A stretch of DNA of 63,240 nt, filler included. It is 11 parts of 11 records of this genome, joined end to end, with 100 filler letters (N's around TTAATTAATTAA, not from the genome) between each part and the next. Parts side by side here need not be neighbours in the genome. Positions count along the whole stretch, not along the records: positions 6,645 to 11,984 come from SRR31147125_214802; 10 more parts are not named here. One strand, given 5' to 3'. This document shows, in pieces, positions 6,545 to 23,485 of the stretch. Each line of letters starts with the position of its first letter. The stretch's first letter is position 1. The notes beneath the pieces were generated by a model, which searched no databases, was not told the DNA's origin, and saw nothing but the letters and a program-made list of their open reading frames with translations. A program made the translations under genes and the position numbers.

Positions 6545-6644
6545 NNNNNNNNNNNNNNNNNNNNNNNNNNNNNNNNNNNNNNNNNNNNTTAATTAATTAA
6601 NNNNNNNNNNNNNNNNNNNNNNNNNNNNNNNNNNNNNNNNNNNN
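6545..6644. other. Artificial contig spacer
   Basis: N44-TTAATTAATTAA-N44 (stops in all frames). Confidence 0.99.
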
Positions 6645-6671
6645 GTAATCGCAATGATTACAAGGGTTTTT
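6645..6671 (-). terminator. Truncated terminator hairpin after the SLH gene
   Basis: GTAATC-GCAAT-GATTAC followed by AAGGGTTTTT; the other arm is lost at the contig edge. Confidence 0.4.
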
Positions 6672-6708
6672 GGTTTTGCTGAACATTCAGTTCACAAATA
6701 TATTTTGC

Positions 6709-8103
6709 TTAACTATTTTTATCAAGAACCTTATAGGCAATGAGATTTTTGTCAGCGTCATAGATTGTTATAAGCGCGTATTTGCCGTCTTGTATCATTG
6801 TCTGTATTGGTTCACAGTCAGCAGTGAGTTCTACAAAGCGGCCGTCTTTAGAGGTTAACAAGATATATTTGGTCCGGTTATCCAGGGTATCGATTGAACT
6901 CAGATCGCAGTAAGCTGCGTTTGGCAGCAATTGAATTATAGTATCATAGTCTATTGTTAATTCTGCAATACCATCGCTTAAGGTGAAGCTATATCCAGCC
7001 GCTAGTTCGGGGATAGCGTCAAACTGACTGACATCCTCCTCGATTTCTTCCGGCTCCTCAAAATCTTTTTCTGTCAGAGTTTCACATATAGCTACGACAT
7101 CTCCATTTTGCACGTCGGCATATTCACAAAGCCCGATCATATTATTGGCAGCATCAAAAAAGAATAAAACAGCATAATCGTAATAAGTGACAACCATTCC
7201 TTGCGCATCGTCATATGGATTCAAATAGTTCAGTATGTCATCCTTAACGCTCATTTCACTTTGTATTACATTATATCGTCCGAGATCATCCAGGGCGCCG
7301 GAGGAGCCATATATGCCGGAAACATTAATTTTAGTAAAGTCTTTGACTGCCTCGGGCAGTTTAGACCGATCAAACTTTAGGGTGTGATTCTTATGCCCAA
7401 AAGAATCAACAAAGTAATCGGAAAAGCTTAAAGTAATAATGGCTTGGGTAGGGTCTGAAGTATCCTTGATTACACCGGCCTCCATACCGTCCGTCAAATT
7501 GAACACGCCGTCATTAAGTAACTGCTGAGCGAGCGTTTGGCTTTGTCCGTTCAGGTAGGTCGTTAAGGCATTATATGAAAGATGAACCATGTCATTTCTA
7601 ATAAAAGTATCGGGTGATGCTATTTCCTGTGCTGTTATCAAACCGATACTGATAGCCTTGTTGACTGCCGTGTCATATGTAAAATCGCCATTCTTGTCGT
7701 CATAGCCTAAAGAACGCAAAATAAACGTTACATAGTCTTTCCAGCTGACGTTGTTGCTGCTGCCAAACTGATTATTACCAATTCCGGTTGTTAAGCCATT
7801 GGCATACAGATAGCCGATATAATCGTTTGCCCAGGACGGAACGTCGCTAAATGGGTGGGTGTTTTTCTGCTCAAGCGCCGTGCTTTCCTTCCCGAGGAGC
7901 CGAACAAGCATAACAGCTGCTTCAGCCCGTGTAGGCGTTCGTTCAAGTTCGTAGCCTATATCAGAGCCTTTTAGTAAGCCCAGTGAGTTCAGCGATTCTG
8001 CTTCATCCAGATAACTCGTATTTATGGCCAGTGCCGTCCCCATAAGAATGCTAAATGATAAAATGATGGCTAAAGTAATTGAAAATAAATGCTTCGTTTT
8101 CAT
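6709..8103 (-). CDS. S-layer homology (SLH) domain secreted protein with unrecognised C-terminal region
   Basis: Signal peptide; LGLLKG..PTRAEAAVMLVRLLG, PFSDVPSWANDYIGYLYANGLTTG. Confidence 0.88.
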   Translation of the reverse strand: MKTKHLFSITLAIILSFSILMGTALAINTSYLDEAESLNSLGLLKGSDIGYELERTPTRAEAAVMLVRLLGKESTALEQKNTHPFSDVPSWANDYIGYLYANGLTTGIGNNQFGSSNNVSWKDYVTFILRSLGYDDKNGDFTYDTAVNKAISIGLITAQEIASPDTFIRNDMVHLSYNALTTYLNGQSQTLAQQLLNDGVFNLTDGMEAGVIKDTSDPTQAIITLSFSDYFVDSFGHKNHTLKFDRSKLPEAVKDFTKINVSGIYGSSGALDDLGRYNVIQSEMSVKDDILNYLNPYDDAQGMVVTYYDYAVLFFFDAANNMIGLCEYADVQNGDVVAICETLTEKDFEEPEEIEEDVSQFDAIPELAAGYSFTLSDGIAELTIDYDTIIQLLPNAAYCDLSSIDTLDNRTKYILLTSKDGRFVELTADCEPIQTMIQDGKYALITIYDADKNLIAYKVLDKNS

Positions 8104-8246
8104 TGCAATACCTCACTCATATCGTGTTAAATATGAAAATAATACCATGCAAAGCACAGCGAGTAAAGACATATAGTTACGCACAGGTGTTAAATTATCA
8201 GCCTCGGCTTGCGCTTGAGAAAATAATCTGTATTGATTCGGTGATG

Positions 8247-8274
8247 AAAAACGCGACAGGTAAACCCTGTCGCG
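8247..8274 (-). terminator. Terminator of the ABC operon
   Basis: CGCGACAGG-loop-CCTGTCGCG with a T run on the minus strand. Confidence 0.75.
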
Positions 8275-8299
8275 CGGCTATATATGTTACCAATTCCGT

Positions 8300-9097
8300 T
8301 TATATTGAATTTTGCTGCTCTCTCACAGACCGGATTGGCGAGATGATCGGTATGCCGTTTTCGTCATAATTGAGCGTGGCGATAACGCTGTATACGTCCC
8401 GGAGCATGTCGGCGGTTATGACAGTGCGCGGCGTGCCGGCGCTGTAAAAATTTCCGTTGTTGTCGATGACGATCAGACGATCGGCAAACCGTGCCGCCAG
8501 ATTGATGTCGTGGAGTACAACAATGACGCTGACGTCTTTATTTTGAACAATCCGGCGAAGCAGTGCACACAGCTCCAGCTGTTTTTGTAAATCAAGCGAA
8601 TTGACGGGCTCGTCGAGCAGAATGATTTTCGGGTCGCGCACAAGCGTCTGGGCGATAAATACCAGCTTTTTCTGGCCGCCGCTGAGCTCGCCGAAGCTGC
8701 GGGCCGCCAGAGATGCGATCCCCAGTGCGCGGAGCGTGTCCATAACGATGTCGAGGTCCTCGTCCGACACACGCCGGCCCAATTCCGGCAGACGGCCCAG
8801 AAGCACCATTTCAAGCACGGTCAACATGGAAAAATCGATATCCATTTGCGGCAGATAGGACATCAGCCGCGTTTTCTCTGCCGTCTTCATGGCGGTAACG
8901 CAGTCTTCGCCCATATAAATGGCGCCTTGATATTTCAGCAGACCGAAGATGGATTTAAGAAGCGTGGATTTCCCTGCGCCATTTGGGCCTAAAATAACGT
9001 TGAGGCCCGGGCCGAATTCTACATTCAGGTTGCTGAATACGGGCTGCTGGGCGCTGACGCCGTTATACGAAAAGGATAATCCCTGAACCTTTAGCAT
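8300..9097 (-). CDS. ABC transporter ATPase (FecE/BtuD type)
   Basis: Walker A GPNGAGKST, LSGGQ, ILLDEP, VLHDINLA; start MLKVQ overlaps the permease stop. Confidence 0.95.
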   Translation of the reverse strand: MLKVQGLSFSYNGVSAQQPVFSNLNVEFGPGLNVILGPNGAGKSTLLKSIFGLLKYQGAIYMGEDCVTAMKTAEKTRLMSYLPQMDIDFSMLTVLEMVLLGRLPELGRRVSDEDLDIVMDTLRALGIASLAARSFGELSGGQKKLVFIAQTLVRDPKIILLDEPVNSLDLQKQLELCALLRRIVQNKDVSVIVVLHDINLAARFADRLIVIDNNGNFYSAGTPRTVITADMLRDVYSVIATLNYDENGIPIISPIRSVREQQNSI

Positions 9098-10155
9098 CAC
9101 AGTGTCCTCATCTTTCTGAATATGATAGCCAGGAATATGGGGATGCCTATCACCGCCGTCACAAGCCCGATGGGCAGAATGACGCCCCGAATCACCAGCT
9201 TGCTGACGACAAATGACAGCGACACGACAAACGCGCCCAGCATGGCCGACAGCGGCAGGAAAAAGCGCTGATCCTCTCCAACAAACTGACGGGCGATATG
9301 CGGGGCGATGATGCCCACAAAGCCGATGGAGCCCACAAAGCAAACGGCAAACGCCGTGAGCAGGGACGTGAGCAGAATGACCATTCTGCGCATCCGCTGG
9401 GTATTGACGCCGAGGCTGCGCGCTTTCGTGTCGTCAAGCGTCATCGCCGTGAGCTTCCAGGAGTTTAGATACAGGATGATAAAGCAGACGAACAGGACGA
9501 CGAAGACGATCCAGAATTTTGTCCAGCTGGTTTTCAAAAGGCTGCCCATGTTCCAAAAAACCAGGCTTTTAAGGTCTTCATCGTCGGCAATAAACTGCAA
9601 AATCATCGTCAGAGCGCTGAAAAGAAAATTTTGCGCCACGCCAAACAGGATAATGGCATTTTTCCCGGCGCCGCGCCGGAGCGAAAAGGCGTAAACACAG
9701 ACAGACGCCAAAAGTGCGAAGAAAAACGCGTTCATGGTGATCATGACCGGTTCCGAAACATTCAAGACATTCGTATTGAGTATCAGGCCCAGCGCCGCGC
9801 CGAAGCTGGCCGCATTGGTGATGCCGAGCGTATAGGGGCTGGCAATCGGGTTGCGGAGAATAGTCTGGATTTCGCAGCCGCCGACGCCGAGACTGGCGCC
9901 GACCGCCACGGCCATCAGCGCCATCGGCAGGCGGATCTCCTGGATGATCATGACGTTGTGCCCCTCGCCCCGGCCTGCAAGCAAAACGATGATGATTTCC
10001 TTTAATGAAATATTGGACGAGCCGATGGAGATGTTCAGAAGCAGGAGCATGGTAACAGCAATCAGGAGAGCCGCCGTTAAAGCGGCTCTCTTTCTGATCA
10101 TACTGTGGTACAGCGCCCGGTTACTCAGCGTATCGGTTCTCTGCTTTTCGCGCAC
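9097..10155 (-). CDS. ABC transporter permease (FecCD/BtuC family)
   Basis: IRLP, QTILRNPIASPYTLG, ARSLGV, GSIGFVGIIAPH. Confidence 0.95.
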   Translation of the reverse strand: MREKQRTDTLSNRALYHSMIRKRAALTAALLIAVTMLLLLNISIGSSNISLKEIIIVLLAGRGEGHNVMIIQEIRLPMALMAVAVGASLGVGGCEIQTILRNPIASPYTLGITNAASFGAALGLILNTNVLNVSEPVMITMNAFFFALLASVCVYAFSLRRGAGKNAIILFGVAQNFLFSALTMILQFIADDEDLKSLVFWNMGSLLKTSWTKFWIVFVVLFVCFIILYLNSWKLTAMTLDDTKARSLGVNTQRMRRMVILLTSLLTAFAVCFVGSIGFVGIIAPHIARQFVGEDQRFFLPLSAMLGAFVVSLSFVVSKLVIRGVILPIGLVTAVIGIPIFLAIIFRKMRTL

Positions 10156-11723
10156 TATCCGATAACCTCGTTAACACCCTGGCACCATATGGTAATATCG
10201 CTGTCAACGAGCATAAAGCGGTCAAAAAATTCGTCCATGATGGCGTCGACGTCCGTATCCGCAAAATCCTCGGGATAGAACAGGGAAGCCAGCTGTAAGC
10301 AGCCGTAAAAGCTGAAAATAGACCGGCTCATCGCATGAGCCAATTCATACACATTGCCGTCCTTAACGGCCTGAAGATCATTCCAGCCCGTGCGATTGAC
10401 AATATCGAACGACGGGACGCTGAGCGTAGCGTTTTCGTGGTTGTCCATCCAGCCACCGCCGGCGCCGCTTGTGATGACAAATTCGGGATCGGCTTCAATA
10501 ACATATTCCGGGTCGAGCGTGTTTCCGCCGCCCTGACCCGAGGCCGCGTCCAGCAGGAGCGGGTCGGCAATATTGTTGCCGCCGGCGAGCGCGATCAGCA
10601 GGCCCCAGCCGCTGGCGCTCGTACTGGTGGAGCCGTAAACCTCGGAATAGCCGGATTTTTCATAATACACCGTCGGCTTGTCGGTTTTTGCATCAAGATT
10701 TTTGGAAGCAATTAGCGCATACTGCTCGTCAATAAAGCTTGTCACCTCGGCGGCCCGGTCTTCCTTCTGGAATATCTGCCCGAGCAGCTCAAGCGTCTGC
10801 TGCGCCGACGTGTCGATGGATTTTCCGGGCACGTCGATCATGACAATGGGGATGCCCGCCTCGGTCAGCAGAGGTTCGACTTCCAGGGCATATTTGTGCG
10901 CGGCCATCGCGGAATTGACAATCAATACGTCGGGATCCATGGCGAGGATCATTTCCAGGTCAAACGGTGCGTTGTGCTCGGAAATCTGGCCAAAGTGCTC
11001 CATATAAGGGCCAACAATTGGCATGTAGAGGCTGCTGTATCGCTCAATACCGCCGCCGCCGTCCTGACCGGAGGCAACGAGCATGTTAAAGGCTTCTTCC
11101 CCAAGCAGAGGGATCATGTAGTCGATGACATCCATCGTGCTGATGGCATAGGTTGAAATCGGGAGATCAATGCTGACCTCACGGCCCTTGACATCCGTCA
11201 CAACGATGGTGTCCGTGATCGGCGCCTTTTCCGGCATTGATTCGGGGTTGAACTCAACGGCTTGGGCCGTTTGGGCCTGCGTGGCAGTAAATCCGTACGC
11301 GGCGGGATCAAGGCCGGCGCTCTCAAGCGCGTCGGCCACGGCGGCTGTGATGGCTTGGCCGGTGATAGTCGCACCGGATACCATATCGATGTCAAGCGTC
11401 TGGGCGTCGATGATCGCGCCCGGGAGCTGCTCGATGGCGATGGTTCCAACGCCTTCGGTTTCACCATGGTCTTTGCCCACGTCAATATTTGTGATTTTCC
11501 CGTCGGCGTCCAGTTCGACGGTGACGGTAACGTCTCCGTGGTATCCGGCTGCCGTCCCCGTATAAGTACCGTCATAGCTGACGGGCTCGGAAACTTCGGG
11601 CGAAGCCGCGTCCGAGGCCGATACGTCTGGGGATTCATCCGTGCCTGAATTATTTGAGGCGCAGGACGCAAGCGTCATAAGCAGTAGTAGGGCTGCCAGT
11701 AAAATGGCTGCAAGTCGTTTCAT
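10155..11723 (-). CDS. Lipoprotein substrate-binding protein (class III, BtuF/FhuD-like) with an N-terminal FMN-binding (flavinylation) domain
   Basis: Lipobox LASC; DGTYTGTAAGYHGDVTVTV...DMVSGATITG; then VTDVKGREVSI, DPEYVIEADPEF, WNDLQAVKDGNVY. Confidence 0.9.
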   Translation of the reverse strand: MKRLAAILLAALLLLMTLASCASNNSGTDESPDVSASDAASPEVSEPVSYDGTYTGTAAGYHGDVTVTVELDADGKITNIDVGKDHGETEGVGTIAIEQLPGAIIDAQTLDIDMVSGATITGQAITAAVADALESAGLDPAAYGFTATQAQTAQAVEFNPESMPEKAPITDTIVVTDVKGREVSIDLPISTYAISTMDVIDYMIPLLGEEAFNMLVASGQDGGGGIERYSSLYMPIVGPYMEHFGQISEHNAPFDLEMILAMDPDVLIVNSAMAAHKYALEVEPLLTEAGIPIVMIDVPGKSIDTSAQQTLELLGQIFQKEDRAAEVTSFIDEQYALIASKNLDAKTDKPTVYYEKSGYSEVYGSTSTSASGWGLLIALAGGNNIADPLLLDAASGQGGGNTLDPEYVIEADPEFVITSGAGGGWMDNHENATLSVPSFDIVNRTGWNDLQAVKDGNVYELAHAMSRSIFSFYGCLQLASLFYPEDFADTDVDAIMDEFFDRFMLVDSDITIWCQGVNEVIG

Positions 11724-11822
11724 ATGTATCTCCTTTTATCATGAATCATTATTGCGGATATGCCTGTTTGTCCGGTCAACCACGCTCCCTCCGAATGTGT
11801 GCTGCCGGGACGGCTTGGCAAT

Positions 11823-11857
11823 AAAAAAGCCGCACCAATCCCAGGATTGATGCAGCC
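11823..11857 (-). terminator. Leader terminator (riboswitch expression platform)
   Basis: Minus strand GCTGCATCAATC-CTGG-GATTGGTGCGGC-TTTTTT, about 100 nt before the start codon. Confidence 0.8.
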
Positions 11858-11913
11858 GTATTCCGCATAATTCATGATGCCCAAGATTCGGTTAACCGGT
11901 AATGGGCCTTTCC

Positions 11914-11984
11914 AAGCAGGTCTTCTGACTCGCGTTTGGGGAGACTAACCTCCTGCGGCGCGCACTCTGCCTTCCCAGTTTCCC
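11914..11984 (-). ncRNA. Cobalamin riboswitch, 3' half (5' part cut by contig end)
   Basis: Minus strand GGGAAACTGGGAAGG...GAGTCAGAAGACCTGC, the conserved B12-box elements. Confidence 0.9.
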
Positions 11985-12084
11985 NNNNNNNNNNNNNNNN
12001 NNNNNNNNNNNNNNNNNNNNNNNNNNNNTTAATTAATTAANNNNNNNNNNNNNNNNNNNNNNNNNNNNNNNNNNNNNNNNNNNN
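11985..12084. other. Artificial contig spacer
   Basis: N44-TTAATTAATTAA-N44. Confidence 0.99.
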
Positions 12085-13327: not shown

Positions 13328-14472
13328 AAGAGCTTGGCAATGCCTTTGGAAAGGCCGATAACGCCTTTGTGGATAACGTTTACCATACCCTTGGCGCCAT
13401 ACAAAAAAAACAGGTCAGGCGACCTGGAAAGTCAATCCTCAACAAAAATCTGCGCTTTGTTGCGGCTGTTGCAATCGTGTGCATACTGCTGGCCGGCATG
13501 GCTCTGGCGGCAACGAATACCTGGGGCGTGCTCGATTTTCTCCGGGAACGGGATAATAGCATAGACGTCTTACCCCAAGCCAGCGAGATTGTACAAACAA
13601 ACGTGCCCCAGGCTCCTGCAAGTCCGGCTCCTACAAGTCAAGTTCCGGCAGATCAGGTTCCGGCGAGCACGGATGTTGCGGATTTCTCGGTACGTGAAGC
13701 CATATACGACGGAAACAACTTCTACCTCATCGTTGATGTAAAGCCGGCGCGCGATACGTATTTACTGCTGGGGCCGGATGTCTACCCCCAGGACACCTGG
13801 TGCGACATGGGTCCGCTTTACAGCGATAAAACCGGCGCCATCTCCGATTATGCCGAAGAGCACGGCAAGGAGATGATTCAGACGAACGTACAGGTAGATG
13901 GAACGAACGGCCAGAGCCTTCAGTATCTCCTCCAGCAGGACGGAACGCTCACCTTTATGATCCACGGCAGTCTGATTGACGACTCCGACAAGACAGAGCT
14001 GGAGCTCGCCTGTATTATCGCCCCATTTGAAAACTTGAACGGCAAAGAGGTTGTTTTACAGGAAAATATCGAACGCGCTTCCCTTAAGATCACGCTTGAA
14101 AACACGGGTACCCGTGAACTGGTATCCAGCATCGTTCCGGCAGAATATGAAAGCTGCGGTGTCCGTATTGACAACATTACGCTAAAAGCTTCTGAAATGG
14201 CTGTCTATACCGAAATTCGTTATACTGTTATTGATGAGGCGAAATTTGCCGCAACCGATACCGGATTAGCGTTCGAATTTTTAGATTCGGACGGCAACAG
14301 CTTGCCATTCGGCGGGGCGGCAGGCGGAGAGACCATAATCGAGGACGATATACATTATGTCGTAAAAAGCTCTATTAGCGCAATGGAAGTTTTGCCGCAG
14401 GAGATCGCTGTCCGGGGCTATAATTTCTGGGACAAAAACAGATATGAGACAAACACATTTGAACTGAGATAG
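13315..14472 (+). CDS. Putative anti-sigma factor (single TM, extracellular DUF4179-like region)
   Basis: Overlaps the sigma 3' end; short cytoplasmic N-terminus, TM ending ALAA, acidic extracellular domain. Confidence 0.7.
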   Translation: MRTMKELGNAFGKADNAFVDNVYHTLGAIQKKQVRRPGKSILNKNLRFVAAVAIVCILLAGMALAATNTWGVLDFLRERDNSIDVLPQASEIVQTNVPQAPASPAPTSQVPADQVPASTDVADFSVREAIYDGNNFYLIVDVKPARDTYLLLGPDVYPQDTWCDMGPLYSDKTGAISDYAEEHGKEMIQTNVQVDGTNGQSLQYLLQQDGTLTFMIHGSLIDDSDKTELELACIIAPFENLNGKEVVLQENIERASLKITLENTGTRELVSSIVPAEYESCGVRIDNITLKASEMAVYTEIRYTVIDEAKFAATDTGLAFEFLDSDGNSLPFGGAAGGETIIEDDIHYVVKSSISAMEVLPQEIAVRGYNFWDKNRYETNTFELR

Positions 14473-14505
14473 ACCGGACATAAATCTTAACACTGTCAAT
14501 AATCC

Positions 14506-14541
14506 AAGGCGCATGGGGTTACCCATGCGCCTTATTTTTTC
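14506..14541 (+). terminator. Intrinsic terminator
   Basis: AAGGCGCATGGG-GTTA-CCCATGCGCCTT-ATTTTTTT. Confidence 0.9.
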
Positions 14542-14562
14542 GCCCCTCACCTGTTTTTCTCA

Positions 14563-14591
14563 TTTACATTAAGGCCGGATTATGCTATGAT
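14563..14591 (+). promoter_or_regulatory. SigA-type promoter (extended -10)
   Basis: TTTACA-N17-TATGAT with TGn. Confidence 0.6.
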
Positions 14592-14627
14592 GAGCGCACT
14601 TATTACGCTTAAACAGGGAGTGCAAGG

Positions 14628-15341
14628 ATGCACAAGATAAACCGTGAGCGCCGAGAGTATTACATATATGTTGTGCTGTCAAAGACGCCGACAAAATTTG
14701 GCGGGGTCATCAGAAGACTGGCGGGTATTGAGTATAACCACGCCTCCATCGCGTTTGACAGCCAGCTGAAACAGCTTTACTCCTTTGCCCGTCGTCAGTA
14801 TAAAAACCCACTGGACGCGGGTCTCGTGCGCGAGCATTTCGACTCTTTTTCACTCCGGCGCGTTGCCCAGGTGGACGTCCGCATCTATAAAATTCCCGTC
14901 ACACGTGAGCAGTATCTCAACGGAAAATCCCGTATTCTGGAAATTAAACATGACACGGACGGCTATCTGTATAATCTCTTCTCCGTCCTCTTCTACCCCC
15001 TCACAAAAGGCTTCGAAACGTATAAGGCCTATACCTGCGCCGAGTTTGTAGCACATATGATCCGGACGATGGATATTGAGCTGATGCCCGGCAAGCTGGA
15101 CTGTGCTTACACGCCGCAGGAAATCGGCGATTGTATTAGCGACTGTCTGATGTATGAGGGTAATCTGCTGGAGTATTGCCAGATGCCGCCATGGGAGAGT
15201 ATCTTTTTCGACCGACCGGGTTACCGGCGGAAAGCGAAAACCAGCGCCGTTTTGGTGTTCAGACTCTTGTTTCGCATGCTTCGTTTCAGCGGCGCTTTTG
15301 TAACAATGATAAACTTAATAAGCTTGTCCGGCATCCGATGA
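14628..15341 (+). CDS. Hypothetical protein, permuted papain-like (NlpC/P60 superfamily) candidate
   Basis: His motif YNHASIAFD precedes Cys motif YTCAEFVA, then YTP. Confidence 0.65.
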   Translation: MHKINRERREYYIYVVLSKTPTKFGGVIRRLAGIEYNHASIAFDSQLKQLYSFARRQYKNPLDAGLVREHFDSFSLRRVAQVDVRIYKIPVTREQYLNGKSRILEIKHDTDGYLYNLFSVLFYPLTKGFETYKAYTCAEFVAHMIRTMDIELMPGKLDCAYTPQEIGDCISDCLMYEGNLLEYCQMPPWESIFFDRPGYRRKAKTSAVLVFRLLFRMLRFSGAFVTMINLISLSGIR

Positions 15342-15366
15342 CCATCTGTGTCCTCGGATGCTTTTT

Positions 15367-15395
15367 TGGAACTTTATAATAAACCGGACCGTCAA
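15367..15395 (+). promoter_or_regulatory. Second ECF-type promoter
   Basis: TGGAAC-N17-CGTCAA, same core and spacing as 12776-12804. Confidence 0.6.
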
Positions 15396-15441
15396 AACAA
15401 ACGTCACGTGACCCTACAGCAATTATTATGAGGTGAATTGA

Positions 15442-17370
15442 ATGAAAGGAAAAAGACTCCTGCCGGCACTTGTCGGCATAGCCCTGCTGGTCGGCCTGTT
15501 TACAGGCTGCGGCACATCCCTGGCCAATAATGACGTCACACCGGGCAACCCGTCGCCGTCCGGCGGGAACATAGATAATGAAGATCCGGCGTTTGCCGAA
15601 AGCTACGAGGATATCTTTAAGGCCATCCAAAACGCTCAAACACGAAACGCCGAGGGCAACGGCATCGCTGTCGATACCGCCGCGGGTTTTGCGGTCCCCG
15701 AGTCAGCTCCCGTCCCCTCACCCGCGCCCGCCCTGGACGGCGCTGATACAGGCGGCAAAGCCTATTCGGAGACAAACGTCCAGGTTACCGGTGTCGACGA
15801 AGGCGATATTGTGAAAACAGACGGCGATTATATTTATGTCCTGCGCGACAACGAGCTGATCATTTTTAAGGCGGACGGCGCGTCAACCGTCCAGGTATCG
15901 GCGGTAAAGGTTGCCGGCGGTGATTCAGCCGAAACCGATGACGAGAAGCTTATGACAAACGATTACGCATCGGATATTTTTGTGACGGGCAACACGGCCG
16001 TTGTCGTCGTCTCCCAATACCGATACATGCCCTACGCAGAAAGCCCCGACGGTAAAGTCGCCGCCCTGCCGTACGGCGGCGACAAGCAAATTTCCATGGT
16101 ACGCATTTACGATATCACGGACCGCACAAACCCCGTATTGAAGAACGAGCTGGGACAGGATGGTTACGTACTCACCACGCGTCTGATCGATACGACGCTG
16201 TATATGATTTCAACGTACTACGTCTATAATCCGAGCGAAGAAAACGACGGAACGTATATTCCCAGCGTTTACGCCAACGGGACTTCCGAATTGATAAAAG
16301 CCGGCGATATCGCGATCATGCCCTATTTTGACTCGACGTCCTATACAGTCGTCTGCGCGTATGATCTGAACAGCGCCGCGCTGAGCGCCAGCCAGTCGCT
16401 CCTCGGCGGCGGGTCGACCGTTTATATGAACGCCGATACGCTTTTCATCGCCGCGTCAACAAACCGGCAGACAGCCGGCACGCCATACAGCAAGAGCGTT
16501 TATACCGTCACCGATTACACGAGAACAAATGTCACGGATATCACAAGCTTTGACGTTTCCGGTGGCGGCCTGGCGCTGAAAGCCTCCGGCACGGTGACCG
16601 GCTATCTCAACAGCCAGTTCAATATGGATGAATATGACGGGAACCTTCGTGTCGTCACAACGACGTATACGGAGAGCTGGACGGAGTATACGGATGAGGA
16701 GATGGGCTGGACCAACTATATTTGGGGTGACAGCGAAAATTCCAACGCGTTATACGTTCTGGACAGCTCGATGAACGTTGTCGGCAGCATTGAGAATCTG
16801 TCCGCGGATGAGCAGGTTTACGGCGTTCGCTTTGACGGCGCGACCGGTTATGTCGTTACCTTCCGCCAGGTCGACCCGCTGTTTGCCGTTGATCTGAGCG
16901 ATCCGGTGCAGCCCGCCGTCCTCAGTGCCCTGAAGATTCCCGGCTTCTCCGAGTACCTGCACATCTACAGTGAAGGGCGTCTGTTTGGCCTCGGCATGGA
17001 CGCCGACGAGGAAACCGGCCGGACCTCCGGCATGAAGCTGACGATGTTTAATACTGAAGACCCGACGGATGTAACGGAGAAGCACACGCTGAAGCTGGAT
17101 TCAGGCTATTCCGCCGCTTTGTACAATCACAAGGCCATTCTCATCTCGGCGGATCAATCCATCATCGCCTTCCCTGCCGAAAACGGCTATGATATCTACG
17201 GCTACGCCGACGATACAGGCTTTTATAAAAGGGCGAGCATCACAGGCGTCGAATGGTACGGCGATGGCCGCGGCCTGTACATCAGCAATACCGCCTATAT
17301 CGTCAGCAATAACGCCGTGACGGTTCTTGATATGTCTGATTTCTCCATCATTACGCAAGTTGCTTTTTAA
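15442..17370 (+). CDS. Secreted lipoprotein with beta-propeller domain (Beta_propel family)
   Basis: Lipobox FTGC; YSETNVQVTGVDEGDIVKTDG, NSQFNMDEY, YVVTFRQVDPLFAVDL, LKIPGFSEYLH. Confidence 0.9.
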   Translation: MKGKRLLPALVGIALLVGLFTGCGTSLANNDVTPGNPSPSGGNIDNEDPAFAESYEDIFKAIQNAQTRNAEGNGIAVDTAAGFAVPESAPVPSPAPALDGADTGGKAYSETNVQVTGVDEGDIVKTDGDYIYVLRDNELIIFKADGASTVQVSAVKVAGGDSAETDDEKLMTNDYASDIFVTGNTAVVVVSQYRYMPYAESPDGKVAALPYGGDKQISMVRIYDITDRTNPVLKNELGQDGYVLTTRLIDTTLYMISTYYVYNPSEENDGTYIPSVYANGTSELIKAGDIAIMPYFDSTSYTVVCAYDLNSAALSASQSLLGGGSTVYMNADTLFIAASTNRQTAGTPYSKSVYTVTDYTRTNVTDITSFDVSGGGLALKASGTVTGYLNSQFNMDEYDGNLRVVTTTYTESWTEYTDEEMGWTNYIWGDSENSNALYVLDSSMNVVGSIENLSADEQVYGVRFDGATGYVVTFRQVDPLFAVDLSDPVQPAVLSALKIPGFSEYLHIYSEGRLFGLGMDADEETGRTSGMKLTMFNTEDPTDVTEKHTLKLDSGYSAALYNHKAILISADQSIIAFPAENGYDIYGYADDTGFYKRASITGVEWYGDGRGLYISNTAYIVSNNAVTVLDMSDFSIITQVAF

Positions 17371-17404
17371 CCGGAGTGAATTGTCAAACTAAGTGCAACA
17401 GGCA

Positions 17405-17504
17405 NNNNNNNNNNNNNNNNNNNNNNNNNNNNNNNNNNNNNNNNNNNNTTAATTAATTAANNNNNNNNNNNNNNNNNNNNNNNNNNNNNNNNNNNNNNNN
17501 NNNN
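17405..17504. other. Artificial contig spacer
   Basis: N44-TTAATTAATTAA-N44. Confidence 0.99.
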
Positions 17505-17892
17505 GCCGCGCCTGCACTTTGACGGAGGCTTCAAAAGGCGCAAACCGGGCGCCCGTCTCTTTGATGACATCCAGAATTCCACATTTCCGGGCAACAGTCT
17601 CCGGGCTGCCGATTCCGGGGGAATCTCCCACGCTGACAATGCCACCTGCGGCCTGTGCTGAGAGGATGACCGCGCGGACAATTTCTGGATGTGTCGTCAC
17701 GGCCAGGCCCGGCTCTTTGCCGGCCAGCATGTTCGGCTTGATAAGTACTGTCTGTCCCGGTTTGACGAAGGCAGACATGCCGCCCAAAGGGTCCAGTAGA
17801 TTGGTCAGCGTTTGCGCGACCTGTTGTGGATCATAGGATCTTAATTGTTGGAGTGAAACCTGCTCTTGAGGTCTGTCAGTCTGAGGTGGCAT
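17505..17892 (-). CDS. DUF362 domain protein, N-terminal part
   Basis: LGGMSAFVKPGQTVLIKPN...VTTHPEIV...VGDSP. Confidence 0.9.
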
Positions 17893-17898
17893 GAGGTC

Positions 17899-18297
17899 TC
17901 AATCGCTGACGATCTTGATATGAAGGGTGCGTGTCCTGGGTCCGTCGAATTCACAGAAATAGACTCCCTGCCAGGTTCCGAGCAGGGCACGCCCCTGGTG
18001 AATCATCAGTTGTTCCGACACCCCGATCAGGCTGCTTTTGATGTGGGCTGCGCTGTTGCCTTCAAGGTGTCGATACTGGTCTTCAAGGGGGATTAATTTA
18101 TTCAGGCCAGCAATCATGTCGATGCAGACATCGGGGTCTGCATTTTCGTTGATTGTAATTGCTGCTGTTGTGTGCGGGACGAACAGTTGCGCAGTCCCCT
18201 CTGTAACGCCGGAGGTTGCAATGAGGGCATTGATTTCATCCGTCACATCCTTGAACTGAATCTGTTGCTGCGTTTGAACTGTCAGTCGAGAGATCAT
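17899..18297 (-). CDS. yjbQ: YjbQ/UPF0047 family protein
   Basis: PHTTAAITINENADPDV, HLEGNSAAHIK, LGTWQGVYFCEFDGPR. Confidence 0.95.
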   Translation of the reverse strand: MISRLTVQTQQQIQFKDVTDEINALIATSGVTEGTAQLFVPHTTAAITINENADPDVCIDMIAGLNKLIPLEDQYRHLEGNSAAHIKSSLIGVSEQLMIHQGRALLGTWQGVYFCEFDGPRTRTLHIKIVSD

Positions 18298-19148
18298 GAC
18301 TCGATCGGTCGTTTCAAAGTAGCTATCGTGGCATCAATAGCAGCAGAACGATAGATGAGGGATGTGTGCCCCATCCGATCAAGAGGGATGTTTTCTGCCC
18401 AAGACAGGGAGCAGCTGTTGTTCGGTAGCACCATGTTATCTTTCTGGGTGTAAATATTTGTTGTCCTGATTTCGGCCGGAGGCGCCGCAGTGTTGAGGCG
18501 CTGGAGAAAAGCTGAGCCAGGGATCAGGTGCTTTCCGAGCGGTGAGATGGAAAAGGGAGCGAGTTTCGACCCGGCGTGAGGCGATCCGAGGCAAACGAGC
18601 TGGTCGACTTTGCTTTCACCGCCTCGCAGCTGAATGTAGTTTCGCGCGATGATCCCACCCATGGAGTGGCCGACAAGGTTCACCTTGTTGACACCGAGAC
18701 GATGCCTCAGTTCATCAACCCGTTTGGAAAGCAACTCAGTCAGGACTTCTTCGCTGTGCCAGGACGACAGGTTAATAGTGACGACGTTGCTGAACCCTTG
18801 CTGTCGCAGCTGTTTTTTAAACCAGAACCAGCTGGCCTGATTGTCGAACAGGCCATGCAGGAGCAGAATGGGAGTCTCTCCTCGCTTTAAACCCTGATTT
18901 TTTCTGGAAAATAGTCCAAAAGGAATAATGGCAAGGGTCAGGAAGTTAAAAAATGTTTCATAGCTGATCAGTGACGCGCAAAGCTTGAAGCTGCCCTGAT
19001 TGAACCTTTGATCATAGCTGGCGGGGTGCTGATTAGAGTACTCGTACCAGAAGATACTGTAGGATAATACGACAATCAATAAGTCGAATACCAGCAGGGC
19101 GAAGGAGCCCAGGACGAACAGAGTCAGGATTGAAAGCAGGTACGTCAT
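18294..19148 (-). CDS. Membrane-anchored alpha/beta hydrolase (lipase/esterase)
   Basis: N-terminal TM segments, LLLHGL, GHSMGG nucleophile elbow, GSPHAG, D and H near the C-terminus. Confidence 0.88.
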   Translation of the reverse strand: MTYLLSILTLFVLGSFALLVFDLLIVVLSYSIFWYEYSNQHPASYDQRFNQGSFKLCASLISYETFFNFLTLAIIPFGLFSRKNQGLKRGETPILLLHGLFDNQASWFWFKKQLRQQGFSNVVTINLSSWHSEEVLTELLSKRVDELRHRLGVNKVNLVGHSMGGIIARNYIQLRGGESKVDQLVCLGSPHAGSKLAPFSISPLGKHLIPGSAFLQRLNTAAPPAEIRTTNIYTQKDNMVLPNNSCSLSWAENIPLDRMGHTSLIYRSAAIDATIATLKRPIES

Positions 19149-19309
19149 AAGTTCTATCCTCTGGATCGCACGGGACACACCCTGTTAAATGGGTCGTTGA
19201 ACGGGCGACAGGCTGGTTATTCTGAAACCATAATGTTAAAAAGTATGACACGCGGTATTTGCAGCGTCAACAATCATGGCTGATCTTTGTTTGTCGGGAA
19301 TGGTTGAAT

Positions 19310-20209
19310 ATGGAAGAGCGGATCCGTAAATTCCACCAATATATGAAGGTTGAAAGAAATCTTTCGCAAAGAACGATCGCTGCGTATGGCCGTGATCTGG
19401 AGCAGTTTTTCCTGTTCCTGCGGGACCAGGGTGTTGCGCTGAGATGCGATGAGCATTTGTGTCAGGTCGATACGCTGCAGGTGCGTCATTTTCTGGCCCA
19501 GTTGCATAAGAGCGTTGGTAGGACAAGTATTGCGCGGAAGCTGTCTGCTCTTGGGACCTTTTTTCGTTATCTTGTCAGGGAAGGGGTGCTGGATGCCTCT
19601 CCGACTGATGGTTTGACGATCCCAAAACGTGAATCCTACCTCCCTCAAATATTAAGTGCAGAGCAGGTCAGTTCGCTTCTTGACCGCCCTCAGCATGGGC
19701 CTCGGTGGAAGGTCATCAGGGATCTCGCGATGTTTGAGGTGATCTATTCCTGTGGTCTGAGGGTCAGCGAGTTGACCGGTCTGAATCTTACGTCCGTCGA
19801 TTTTGAAACGCGTCAGGTCCGTGTCCTCGGGAAAGGGAACAAGGAGAGACTTGTGCCGCTGGGACGGCAAGCCTGCACGGCATTGCAGCTTTACCTTGAG
19901 GGGCGGGACCTGTCCCATAAAGAACAAGCTCTCTTTCTGAACCATCGCAAAGGACGGCTGACCGCCCGGAGCGTGCAGCGGATTCTGAAGCAACGTTTGT
20001 TGCAGATGAATCTTCCAACCGATGTGACACCTCACGCTTTGCGCCATTCTTTTGCGACCCATCTGCTTGATGCAGGGGCCGATTTAAGGGTGATACAGGA
20101 GCTGCTTGGACACGCCTCCCTGTCGACAACACAGCGCTACACAAAAGTCAGTTTTTCTCACCTCGCAAGTGTTTATGATCAGGCCCACCCACGCAGCCGA
20201 AAAAAATGA
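19310..20209 (+). CDS. xerC: Tyrosine recombinase XerC
   Basis: YSCGLRVSEL, GKGNKER, HALRHSFATHLL, LLGHASLSTTQRYT, YDQAHPR. Confidence 0.9.
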   Translation: MEERIRKFHQYMKVERNLSQRTIAAYGRDLEQFFLFLRDQGVALRCDEHLCQVDTLQVRHFLAQLHKSVGRTSIARKLSALGTFFRYLVREGVLDASPTDGLTIPKRESYLPQILSAEQVSSLLDRPQHGPRWKVIRDLAMFEVIYSCGLRVSELTGLNLTSVDFETRQVRVLGKGNKERLVPLGRQACTALQLYLEGRDLSHKEQALFLNHRKGRLTARSVQRILKQRLLQMNLPTDVTPHALRHSFATHLLDAGADLRVIQELLGHASLSTTQRYTKVSFSHLASVYDQAHPRSRKK

Positions 20210-20326
20210 CAAAATAGGTAATTATTACTTGACAGGTTATGTTTGTTGGTTAAACTTGACGCGTTTGAAATTGAATCGTTCCGGTTGAGAAACCGCAAAC
20301 ATAACACGTATAAAGGAGTCGTCATC

Positions 20327-20926
20327 ATGAGTGTTCTCGTAGGTAAGCAAGCCCCGGATTTTACATCACAAGCCGTACTGGCTGATGGTTCTATCGGCGA
20401 ATTTTCCATGTCAGATTGCAAAGGAAAGTATGTTGTTTTGTTCTTTTATCCTCTCGATTTCACCTTTGTCTGTCCGACAGAGTTGATTGCCTTCAGCCAT
20501 CGTATCGAAGATTTTGAAAAGCGCGGTGTGCAGGTGGTTGGTTGCTCGATCGACTCCCAGTTTACTCACCTGGCATGGCGCAACACTCCGGTGAATGAGG
20601 GTGGTATCGGTCCTGTCAAGTATCCTCTGGTTGCTGATGTCAAGCATGAGATCTGTCGCGCCTATGATGTTGAGTTTGATCCGGCGGGTGTTGCTCTACG
20701 TGGTTCCTTCCTGATTGATCAAGAAGGCGTTGTTCGTCATCAGGTCGTAAACGATCTGCCTCTGGGGCGGAACATTGATGAGATGCTGCGTATGGTTGAC
20801 GCACTTCAGTTTCACGAAAAGCATGGTGAGGTTTGTCCGGCTGGCTGGACTGAGGGTGACAAAGGGATGGTCGCTGATGGTGAAGGCGTTGCCACATACC
20901 TTGCTGATGAGGCCGAAAAGCTTTAA
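20327..20926 (+). CDS. 2-Cys peroxiredoxin (AhpC/TsaA family)
   Basis: [13 protein letters not shown] and EVCPAGW; SD AAGGAG. Confidence 0.97.
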
Positions 20927-20976
20927 CGGCGATCAAGACAATCAAAGTTTCAATAAGTTAGAAAATTAGAGTTAGG

Positions 20977-21007
20977 AAAAAAAGACAGCTTAGGCTGTCT
21001 TTTTTTT
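20977..21007. terminator. Intrinsic terminator
   Basis: A7-GACAGC-TTAG-GCTGTC-T8. Confidence 0.85.
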
Positions 21008-21087
21008 GTTGATTATAATGCTATAATAAGGTTTAATTTGTTAAAATATTAAAGCATTCATAATAACGCTTCTTAAGGGAGGCTGCT

Positions 21088-22032
21088 CTGAGGTTAAAAT
21101 CGTCGATACGAAAGGCGAACGATACTGTTGTGTCGATTTGCTTGGATTCTGGATCTGCAGGGGTTGCAGCTGTTCATCCGGGAGGGGATGGCAGTTATGA
21201 GTTACTCTGCTCTGAATGTTTATCTCTGGAGTCTCCGGATGCCAAGGTTGATGTGGTGAATAATTGTATCCGGAAAAATGGTTTGCAGAAGAAGCATTGT
21301 GTCAGTGTTCTTCCGACGGATGCCTACCAGCTGATTCAGGCGGATATCGAGGGCGTTGAAGAGGGCGAGAGACGTGAGGCTGCTCGTTGGCAGATTCGGG
21401 AGCGGATTGATTATCCGCCGGAAGAGGCTGTCATTGACCTGTTTGACGTTGAGTCATTCAGTGGAGATAGAAAACCTCTGACTTATGTCGTTTCGTCTCA
21501 AAAAGATTTTCTCAGTGATCTCGCTACTCTTGTTCAGGAGTGCGATCTGAAACTAGGCGCGATTGATATTCCAGAGTTTGCATTACGGAACGTTGCGTCT
21601 CTTTTCACAGAGGATGCTCGCGGTGTGGCGATTTTGTTACTGCTTGAAGAGAAAGGCATCCTCGTAGTTGCACGTGAAGGTGTTCTATACCTCGTTCGAC
21701 TGTTTAATACAGGAATGAATGACCTTCTTCCATTCGCTGACGGAGATTATGAGTCTTTGAGTGAAGCTCTGGATGGGATCGTTCTGGAGATACAGCGTTC
21801 TTTCGATTTTTGCGAAAGTACGTTTTCGTTGCCGATGGTCTCACGTTTGCTCGTTGCTCAAACCGTTCAGGAAATCCCGGCCATTGTCAGCTATCTGAAC
21901 GAATATCTCGGGACGACTGTTGAGCCGTTCAACCTCCCGAAAAGCCTCAAAATTATGAATGAGATCGACCCTCTGGTTATAAATCGCAATCTGCTGGCCA
22001 TAGGTGGTGCGCTAAGGCAGGAGGCGGAATGA
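21088..22032 (+). CDS. mshI: MSHA pilus biogenesis protein MshI (PilM-like)
   Basis: YQLIQ..AARWQI..AVIDLF, AIDIPEFALRN, LEIQRSFDFCES; start is either CTG 21088 after GGAGG or GTG 21130. Confidence 0.8.
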   Translation: MRLKSSIRKANDTVVSICLDSGSAGVAAVHPGGDGSYELLCSECLSLESPDAKVDVVNNCIRKNGLQKKHCVSVLPTDAYQLIQADIEGVEEGERREAARWQIRERIDYPPEEAVIDLFDVESFSGDRKPLTYVVSSQKDFLSDLATLVQECDLKLGAIDIPEFALRNVASLFTEDARGVAILLLLEEKGILVVAREGVLYLVRLFNTGMNDLLPFADGDYESLSEALDGIVLEIQRSFDFCESTFSLPMVSRLLVAQTVQEIPAIVSYLNEYLGTTVEPFNLPKSLKIMNEIDPLVINRNLLAIGGALRQEAE

Positions 22033-22963: not shown

Positions 22964-23485
22964 GGCACCATCTGATCCGCTCATGTATCCGTTTTTCGGA
23001 CCCGCTCCTGGCAGGGTCGCCTGCGGTCAGATCGTACCTCCACTTTTCTCTGGGATTCGCAATCATCTCGGATATCGGGAAGAACTCCCGAGCCGGCTCA
23101 CAGCCAGGCCCAGATCCGCACATGTGCAACCCCATCTGTGTGCAGCGAAATCAGCACGCCCCACTGATTCCGGACAGCCCGGAAGAGCCCTCCGGCTTCT
23201 CCCGTTACTTATCTGATTTCCCTGCTGTTTATACCGTCTTTCAAACCCGTCATTTCCCGTATTTCGGGAAAAATGATGGATTTATCCTCCATACACGGTA
23301 AATTGCAACGAAGGTATATCATATATGCTCTATAATCAAGGCAAAACTATTACTTTTGGCTTGACACCGAACGACTCGACCCGTACATTTCGGTGCTTGA
23401 AGGGTCAGGGATTATGAGGAAATCAGGACGTACCTGAGGGGACCCTAAATTATTATCGTCGCACATGTTTTCTAAGGAGAATACC

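Follow-up and report, generated by a model that had tools for sequence, protein, structure and literature searches.

A cobalamin-riboswitch-associated ABC importer operon whose binding lipoprotein carries a predicted flavin-acceptor domain

Introduction

Why should the substrate-binding lipoprotein of an ATP-binding cassette (ABC) importer, expressed from a leader with a cobalamin riboswitch, carry a flavin mononucleotide (FMN)-binding domain? The question is raised by a three-gene operon on contig 6645-11984 of the window, by which we mean the whole stretch of 63,240 bases analyzed here. The window consists of 11 contigs of 5.0-6.5 kb each, joined by 100-nt linkers (Ns around TTAATTAATTAA) located at 6545-6644, 11985-12084, and eight more sites. 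No feature must be read across a join. The contigs differ in origin, with one of them encoding the outer-membrane protein LptD (23465-25942) and standing beside Firmicute-like contigs.

Corrinoid sharing shapes anaerobic communities in guts, digesters, and dehalogenating consortia, and the known corrinoid uptake systems are treated as passive binders, to which a redox cofactor on the binding protein would add a chemical step. The answer that we tentatively favor, with somewhat less than even confidence, is that the operon encodes a B12-regulon ABC importer in which a covalent flavin on the binding protein acts on the cargo, most likely by reducing Co(III) corrinoids to Co(II) at the cell surface. 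If this is true, the chemical step could explain the uptake of ligand-locked or protein-stuck corrinoids or of inert cobalt complexes, and cofactor acquisition would join respiration and iron reduction among the roles of flavinylation by ApbE. The idea is directly testable because the family is conserved, small, soluble, and found in cultured bacteria (Desulfitobacterium, Desulfosporosinus, Fusobacterium).

Operon Anatomy and the Binding Lipoprotein

The operon lies on the minus strand, as do all of its features given here and in the next section, and encodes a binding lipoprotein, a FecCD permease, and an ABC ATPase between a leader terminator and an operon-end terminator. The open reading frame (ORF) and Pfam matches define the first gene (10155..11723), whose 522-aa product consists of a signal peptide with lipobox Cys21, a disordered linker, an FMN_bind domain, a second linker, and a Peripla_BP_2 domain. 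A ribosome-binding site, AGGAG, was read from the sequence 6 nt 5' of its ATG (11730..11734). The FecCD/BtuC-type permease of 352 aa (9097..10155; PF01032, 281 bits) starts with a 1-nt overlap of the binding-protein stop (TAGTG at 10157-10153). The start of the ATPase, 265 aa from the ATG at 9097 (8300..9097; PF00005, 87.8 bits), overlaps the permease stop codon (TGATG at 9099-9095), with GTG at 9100 as an alternative start. A terminator search placed the operon-end intrinsic terminator, with 10 pairs, at 8251..8275. Together with PF01497 at 75 bits in the same operon, the permease and ATPase matches identify a type II ABC importer of the FecCD/BtuCD class. The ORFs, Pfam matches, and terminators on this strand bear out the order of leader terminator, lipoprotein, permease, and ATPase given in a preliminary description of the locus.

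An extracytosolic location of the binding protein is predicted from the lipobox L18-A19-S20-C21, read from the sequence after an N-terminal hydrophobic stretch. The FMN_bind domain occupies residues 60-134 (11322..11546; PF04205, E 1e-16, 61.7 bits vs a cut-off of 22) and contains the intact motif D113-M-V-S-G-A-T119, whose last residue, Thr119 (codon at 11367-11369), is the predicted flavin acceptor. The motif fits the ApbE recognition motif D-x-x-[S/T]-G-A-[S/T] (PMC12052999). PF01497, solved-structure matches, and a purpose-built hidden Markov model (HMM) delimit the class III, or cluster A-2, substrate-binding domain at residues ~171-520 (10164..11213), within which the Peripla_BP_2 (PF01497) match itself covers residues 255-461 (E 7.8e-21). 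The fusion of an FMN_bind domain with an intact D-x-x-S-G-A-T motif to a class III binding domain, as noted in the preliminary description, was thus recovered by family models. An AlphaFold2 model made from 20 sequences has a mean predicted local distance difference test score of 83 and a predicted TM-score of 0.73. The two linkers, at residues 21-44 and 150-152, are modeled with low confidence and are probably flexible.

The Leader and Its Riboswitch

The leader spans 261 nt, from 11984, where the contig ends, to 11724. When the stretch ending at 11984 was searched, its first 87 nt (11898..11984) matched the 3' part of the cobalamin riboswitch aptamer, including the B12 box (RF00174, model positions 119-189), as a 5'-truncated match of 20.3 bits (E 0.0024) vs a gathering score of 31.5 bits. 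No RF00174 or other Rfam match was obtained at gathering score over the whole window, and the leader searched with the linker Ns included gave no Rfam match at E<=10. Only a fragment of the riboswitch is present because the contig ends inside the aptamer and the 5' part is lost. This fragment aligns the B12 box and the 3' helices to the RF00174 consensus, matching GAGUCAGAAGACCUGC, and the invariant columns of a 15-sequence riboswitch alignment fall in the B12 box.

The complete element is found in L001, a locus from a complete chromosome labelled as an uncultured Sporobacter metagenome-assembled genome, which carries an orthologue of the operon (binding protein 91%, permease 97%, and ATPase 93% identical). 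The two leaders are 87% identical over 266 columns, and in L001 the aptamer is matched over its full length (RF00174, 82.3 bits) immediately ahead of the binding-protein gene. We accept the riboswitch for the window operon because the orthologous leader has a complete aptamer. The cobalamin riboswitch named in the preliminary description therefore stands as a sub-threshold 3' fragment with a complete counterpart in L001, and not as a complete aptamer in the window. Downstream of the aptamer, the terminator search found an intrinsic terminator that forms the expression platform (11822..11857, with the stem from 11857 to 11828; 13-pair stem, 4-nt loop, and U run), and the same hairpin is present in the minimum-energy fold of the leader.

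Conservation of the Fusion

Homologues were taken as the best 120 of 191 proteins found at E<=0.001 in a word-indexed search. FMN_bind and Peripla_BP_2 are both present in 118 of these 120, which are 51-91% identical to the window protein, and a lipobox-like pattern was seen in 85. The named sources of the fusion are Desulfitobacterium, Desulfosporosinus, Desulfotomaculum, Oxobacter, Alkalibaculum, Fusibacter, Maledivibacter, and Fusobacterium; it is conserved as a family among anaerobic Firmicutes and Fusobacteria. The family is also compact, since clustering at 50% reduces the full-length fusion to two representatives, P0054 and P0123, plus fragments. Across 20 fusion members the mean column identity is 65%, and G117, A118, and T119 are invariant in all 20 aligned sequences. 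In the best 120 homologues the motif is strict in 92, a near variant in 26 (19 of them D-x-x-A-G-A-T), and absent in 2. The predicted flavin-acceptor residue is thus kept almost everywhere in the fusion family.

Within the phylum of the L001 relative, represented by 401 evenly sampled genomes, the full-length fusion was found in two (G001 and G396), the other 119 matching genomes hitting one domain only. At one further locus (L078:64-2605) a binding-protein gene 79% identical to that of the window is cut at about residue 168. A split gene was considered here and rejected; the interruption is an IS66-type insertion with a 540-aa transposase and accessory ORFs.

B12 Context of the Fused Lineages

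The survey of fused loci covers 25 loci besides the window, classified with purpose-built domain HMMs. They form 16 lineages (the window counted with L001), grouped from a quick tree search with Shimodaira-Hasegawa-like approximate likelihood-ratio test (SH-aLRT) support, in which the root falls on a very long outgroup branch and is insecure. A cobalamin riboswitch at gathering score lies in the leader of ten lineages (window/L001, L002, L003, L004, L047, L050, L052, L053, L064, and L017/G396), the window being counted via L001 as its own fragment is sub-threshold. Two more lineages (L046; L048/L049) have the operon inside a cbi cluster, with the upstream end beyond the available DNA. Enough upstream DNA was available in another two, L051 and the L054-L059/L062/L063 group, which gave no Rfam match at E<=1, and the context of L060 and L061 was not judged. 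A B12 context, be it a riboswitch or a cbi cluster, was hence found in 12 of the 14 judged lineages. Most lineages have the riboswitch itself, as the preliminary description had required of homologous fusions.

In the cbi clusters the gene order is CbiK-(CbiMNQO)-TrmO_N-SBP-FecCD-ATPase-CbiB-CobD-CobQ, where SBP is the substrate-binding protein. The L001 operon adjoins cbiMQO, cbiD-cbiC, and two further riboswitches. A gene for an ArsR-type regulator stands between the riboswitch and the binding-protein gene in L064. Among the riboswitch-bearing lineages, the binding domain of L053 is identical to that of a Desulfitobacterium hafniense protein. That of L051 is identical to the domain of a Fusobacterium necrophorum protein, and both riboswitch-less lineages group with Fusobacterium proteins in the quick tree.

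In G396 a single riboswitch (G396:C5:7141-7324, minus strand) heads an operon for a stand-alone FMN_bind lipoprotein, a class I methyltransferase, the fusion, and the permease. The first gene of this operon (L017:3859-4269, minus strand) encodes a 136-aa FMN_bind lipoprotein with the motif D-x-x-A-G-A-S, 41% identical to the fused domain.

Relationships of the Binding Domain

By sequence and fold, the closest solved proteins are Veillonella parvula 4mo9 and YiuA (9 PDB sequence matches; Foldseek). The match to 4mo9 has a phmmer E of 9e-31, a Foldseek E of 1e-22, and a target TM-score of 0.81, while the target TM-scores for YiuA are 0.79-0.82. The next nearest solved proteins are 4ovk, TM0189, MolA, and Helicobacter pylori CeuE with Ni-His. 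The YiuA structures nearest to the window domain were solved with iron and catecholate fragments. A literature search found no paper on the Yersinia ruckeri YiuA structures. Best matches in NCBIfam and database names are iron-siderophore binding proteins, all far below cut-offs.

The site-1 residues described for YiuA are R64, R165, R223, H331, and Y334 (PMC5683015). In a low-identity alignment they map to D198, P299, K356, H463, and S466 of the window protein, so that the basic triad (R64, R165, R223) is kept at one of three positions. D198, P299, and K356 are invariant in the family, and an invariant Asp thus replaces YiuA R64. The NCBIfam model of Escherichia coli BtuF does not match the window protein either. 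Judged by these comparisons, the binding domain is neither a BtuF nor a typical siderophore binder, and we therefore infer its cargo from context.

The same binding domain, at 44-51% identity, is encoded without FMN_bind at 12 loci. The riboswitch directly precedes the binding-protein gene in L074, and the order in L071 is riboswitch, TonB-dependent receptor, and binding protein. A TonB-dependent receptor gene also precedes the binding protein in the L065-L070/L072/L073/L076/L077 lineage (annotated in L068), where no riboswitch was found at gathering score. The unfused relatives retain D198, P299, K356, H250, H276, and H463, and since these putative site residues are kept, their cargo is probably the same. 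Their sequences form one clade (SH-aLRT 95) nested among the fused ones in the quick tree with its insecure root, which suggests a single loss of FMN_bind. The L068 binding protein was considered as the crystallized 4mo9 protein and rejected on comparison.

Flavinylation Machinery in Relatives

The preliminary description had linked the fusion to the presence of apbE in its hosts. ApbE was found above cut-off in 4/4 genomes of relatives tested, where the ORFs carry lipoprotein signals, and also in 8/14 control genomes. In G002, G003, and G004, FMN_bind is confined to two ORFs per genome, that of the fusion and that of an RnfG-like protein of 176-209 aa, which scores 75-86 bits, below the NCBIfam cut-off of 102.

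One ApbE lipoprotein gene of G001, the genome of the 91%-identical relative (L082:922-5232, corresponding to G001:C1:3146921-3151231) follows genes for a polyprenyl diphosphate synthase and a 1,4-dihydroxy-2-naphthoate (DHNA)-prenyltransferase-like protein and a 359-aa ORF of no assigned family. In this arrangement the locus resembles a portion of that for extracellular electron transfer in Listeria, and a short TrmO_N gene is located 5 kb from it.

Proposed Mechanism and Alternatives

The sequences establish the operon anatomy, its regulation, the conserved acceptor site, and a modifying enzyme in relatives, from which flavinylation, the electron donor, the cargo, and the reduction step are inferred. 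In the mechanism that we propose, an extracytosolic ApbE would attach FMN to Thr119 after export and lipidation of the binding protein. The tethered flavin would be reduced by a membrane system encoded elsewhere, for which the RnfG-like flavoprotein and the quinone-linked ApbE locus of relatives are candidates, and would give an electron to cargo held in, or reaching, the binding cleft. The most likely reaction would convert a Co(III) corrinoid to Co(II), which would free axial ligands and detach corrinoids from other molecules that they are stuck to; cob(III)alamin is known to be readily reduced by reduced flavins. The loaded binding domain would then dock on the permease, with ATP hydrolysis powering import, and plentiful adenosylcobalamin would cause the riboswitch to terminate transcription in the leader.

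Several findings weigh against reduction of a corrinoid by this protein. No BtuF match was obtained in NCBIfam at E<=0.01, and BtuF was absent both from the 9 sequence hits in PDB and from the Foldseek matches as listed to rank 50. The operon contains no electron-transfer gene, and none recurs beside it in the relatives examined; it matches in this a class of flavinylation clusters that "presumably rely on proteins encoded elsewhere" (PMC8238504). The B12 link is not universal, as L051 and the L054-L059/L062/L063 group, both Fusobacterium-type, carry the fused operon without any riboswitch. The hosts are anaerobic, and much corrinoid may already be reduced there. They also look, from their gene content, like de novo corrinoid producers (CbiD was found in 4/5 host genomes examined and a cbi cluster adjoins the operon in L001), and cobalt supply therefore fits as well as salvage. 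Finally, the unfused relatives share the site residues and evidently work without the FMN domain, so that reduction cannot be obligatory for transport. These relatives also favor an ordinary corrinoid or metal-chelate importer, in which the FMN domain would leave the cargo untouched and serve instead as a surface flavoprotein in a general extracellular electron-transfer chain or in a structural or docking role. Such a domain would be in line with the position of the unfused clade inside the fused family, which in the quick tree is consistent with the loss of something dispensable, with the low-confidence, probably flexible linkers, and with stand-alone FMN_bind lipoproteins, 42-48% identical to the window domain, that are common in the phylum sample. 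We nevertheless find it somewhat improbable, because Clostridia, Peptococcaceae, and Fusobacteria all retain the fusion with its acceptor residue, in proteins 51-91% identical to that of the window, and because a general electron-transfer role leaves the second FMN_bind gene under a B12 riboswitch in G396 unexplained.

If the flavin does act on the cargo, that cargo might be a cobalt chelate in place of a corrinoid. A Co(III) or otherwise inert cobalt complex would be captured, the flavin would reduce it to labile Co(II), and import would feed CbiK, in a cobalt equivalent of reductive iron uptake. The B12 regulon is known to include cobalt transporters, the gene often adjoins those for the CbiK cobaltochelatase and CbiMNQO, and the hosts have the de novo corrinoid pathway into which the metal would go; the ArsR-type regulator of L064 and the closest solved relatives, which bind metal chelates or metal-amino-acid complexes (iron in YiuA, Ni-His in H. 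pylori CeuE), point in the same direction. However, a CbiMNQO cobalt transporter is already encoded in the same operons (L046; L001), two of the three YiuA basic-triad positions are lost, and the site is rich in invariant aromatics, which hints at a large planar ligand. A cobalt chelate is thus a somewhat improbable cargo in our view. Iron, haem, or a siderophore, imported by a system with a ferric-reductase head that is only incidentally under a B12 riboswitch, would agree with the NCBIfam and database names, with a survey tying flavinylation to iron reduction (PMC8238504), and with the Fusobacterium-type lineages that lack the riboswitch. The B12 context of 12 of the 14 judged lineages and the incomplete catecholate triad argue against it, and no Fur-box-like repeat was noticed in the two riboswitch-less leaders, which were read by eye only, with no motif search made. 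We consider an iron cargo very unlikely.

Comparison with Known Systems

The operon shares with BtuFCD (E. coli; btuFCDR in Bacillus subtilis, PMC9600662) the type II architecture of FecCD/BtuC permease, ATPase, and class III binding protein. BtuFCD is likewise found under a cobalamin riboswitch and can sit in cbi clusters, as with Sulfurospirillum CbiK-BtuCDF (PMC7755780). The window system differs in that its binding protein is no relative of BtuF by sequence or fold ranking and adds an N-terminal FMN_bind domain. We know of no such domain in canonical BtuF. The cluster A-2 group of YiuA and 4mo9 provides the closest solved sequences and folds, yet at 22-24% identity, without an FMN domain, and with regulation by iron rather than B12 (PMC5683015).

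Flavinylated proteins offer another set of parallels. Listeria PplA, flavinylated by FmnB/ApbE, is also a surface lipoprotein with FMN_bind that is modified outside the cytosol of a monoderm, as is predicted here, but it is not a transporter component, whereas in the window protein the electron acceptor would be the cargo. PceC/RdhC of reductive dehalogenase clusters has an ApbE-flavinylated extracytosolic FMN domain proposed to pass electrons toward a corrinoid center (PMC12052999); it is, however, an integral membrane protein that serves an enzyme-bound corrinoid and not an uptake system. In the iron assimilation clusters associated with flavinylation (PepSY-like, P19; PMC8238504), flavinylated proteins lie beside metal importers, reductive uptake has been proposed, and some clusters likewise have no transmembrane electron carrier of their own. 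These are, however, separate proteins, linked to iron and not fused to an ABC binding protein.

The operon had been put forward at the outset as a candidate for an undescribed system. Full-text literature searches turned up no paper that connects an FMN-binding domain to an ABC binding protein or to the uptake of corrinoids, and a fusion to an ABC binding protein is unmentioned in the main texts of the flavinylation survey (PMC8238504), a follow-up to it (PMC11334425), and the ApbE review (PMC12052999). The terms "ABC transporter," "cobalamin," "B12," "substrate-binding," and "Peripla_BP" do not occur in the main text of PMC8238504, although its gene-cluster table may list such loci.

Neighboring Genes

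In 13 related loci, the gene immediately upstream of that for the binding protein encodes a short TrmO_N (UPF0066/YaeB-like) protein of 135-158 aa (L046:5462-5875, L047:5216-5644, L048:955-1377, L049:890-1303, L050:1652-2092, L052:5215-5622, L053:5235-5642, L054:3214-3639, L056:155-583, L058:5461-5877, L059:5449-5877, L060:22-498, and L074:736-1347), and precedes the riboswitch in several of them. The closest solved structure is AF_0241, which binds S-adenosylmethionine (AdoMet), and short TrmO homologues were left without known function in the TrmO paper (PMC4132733). The importer may have a cytosolic partner in this short TrmO_N protein. A class I AdoMet methyltransferase of ~290 aa is encoded in the fused G396 operon (L017:3018-3908) and in the unfused TonB-dependent-receptor operon (L071:1738-2604), both on the minus strand; the two proteins are 30% identical over 279 aa (E 5e-46). 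It is a second kind of AdoMet-binding neighbor beside TrmO_N. A bolder and rather doubtful proposal can be built on these neighbors, namely that the window protein would be the first cargo-processing binding protein, an ApbE-flavinylated corrinoid reductase that strips Co(III) axial ligands and hands Co(II) to the permease, after which, in many relatives, the dedicated cytosolic AdoMet-binding partner (TrmO_N or the class I methyltransferase) would re-alkylate or finish the corrinoid in a new salvage route.

A MarR-family regulator gene also recurs just upstream. The order is MarR, TrmO_N, riboswitch, and binding protein in four loci (L047:4712-5191, L050:1191-1643, L052:4715-5173, and L053:4755-5210), and MarR followed by the riboswitch in two (L003:8197-8643 and L004:8934-9458).

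A second FecCD system with a cobalamin riboswitch and a plain Peripla_BP_2 protein of 325-335 aa is encoded at L004:14219-18411 (minus strand) and L050:5833-9131 (plus strand). The plain proteins were considered as possibly the genuine BtuF of these organisms, the PDB and NCBIfam matches speaking clearly neither for nor against it. A CbiK gene goes with the second system, lying within the operon itself in L004 and immediately ahead of the second riboswitch in L050. Since the N-terminus of the L004 CbiK is extended by ~33 aa, this enzyme may be exported. The presence of two B12-controlled importers in one genome suggests different cargoes.

Downstream of the window operon, the product of the next gene (6709-8103, minus strand) is a secreted protein of 464 aa, in which the only family match is a single weak one to SLH (E 1.5e-4). 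The Fusobacterium-type operon of L058 runs divergently from genes that encode a DsbD-type membrane protein together with a thioredoxin-MsrA-MsrB fusion (L058:2924-5111, minus strand), another extracytosolic redox system whose presence there may be a coincidence. Beside the operon in L001, a region at 13687-21559 (minus strand) encodes a 916-aa fusion of two ABC ATPase domains with an energy-coupling factor (ECF) S component, a CbiQ-like T component, and DUF4430 and SLH-DUF4430 surface proteins, and this may be another corrinoid uptake system.

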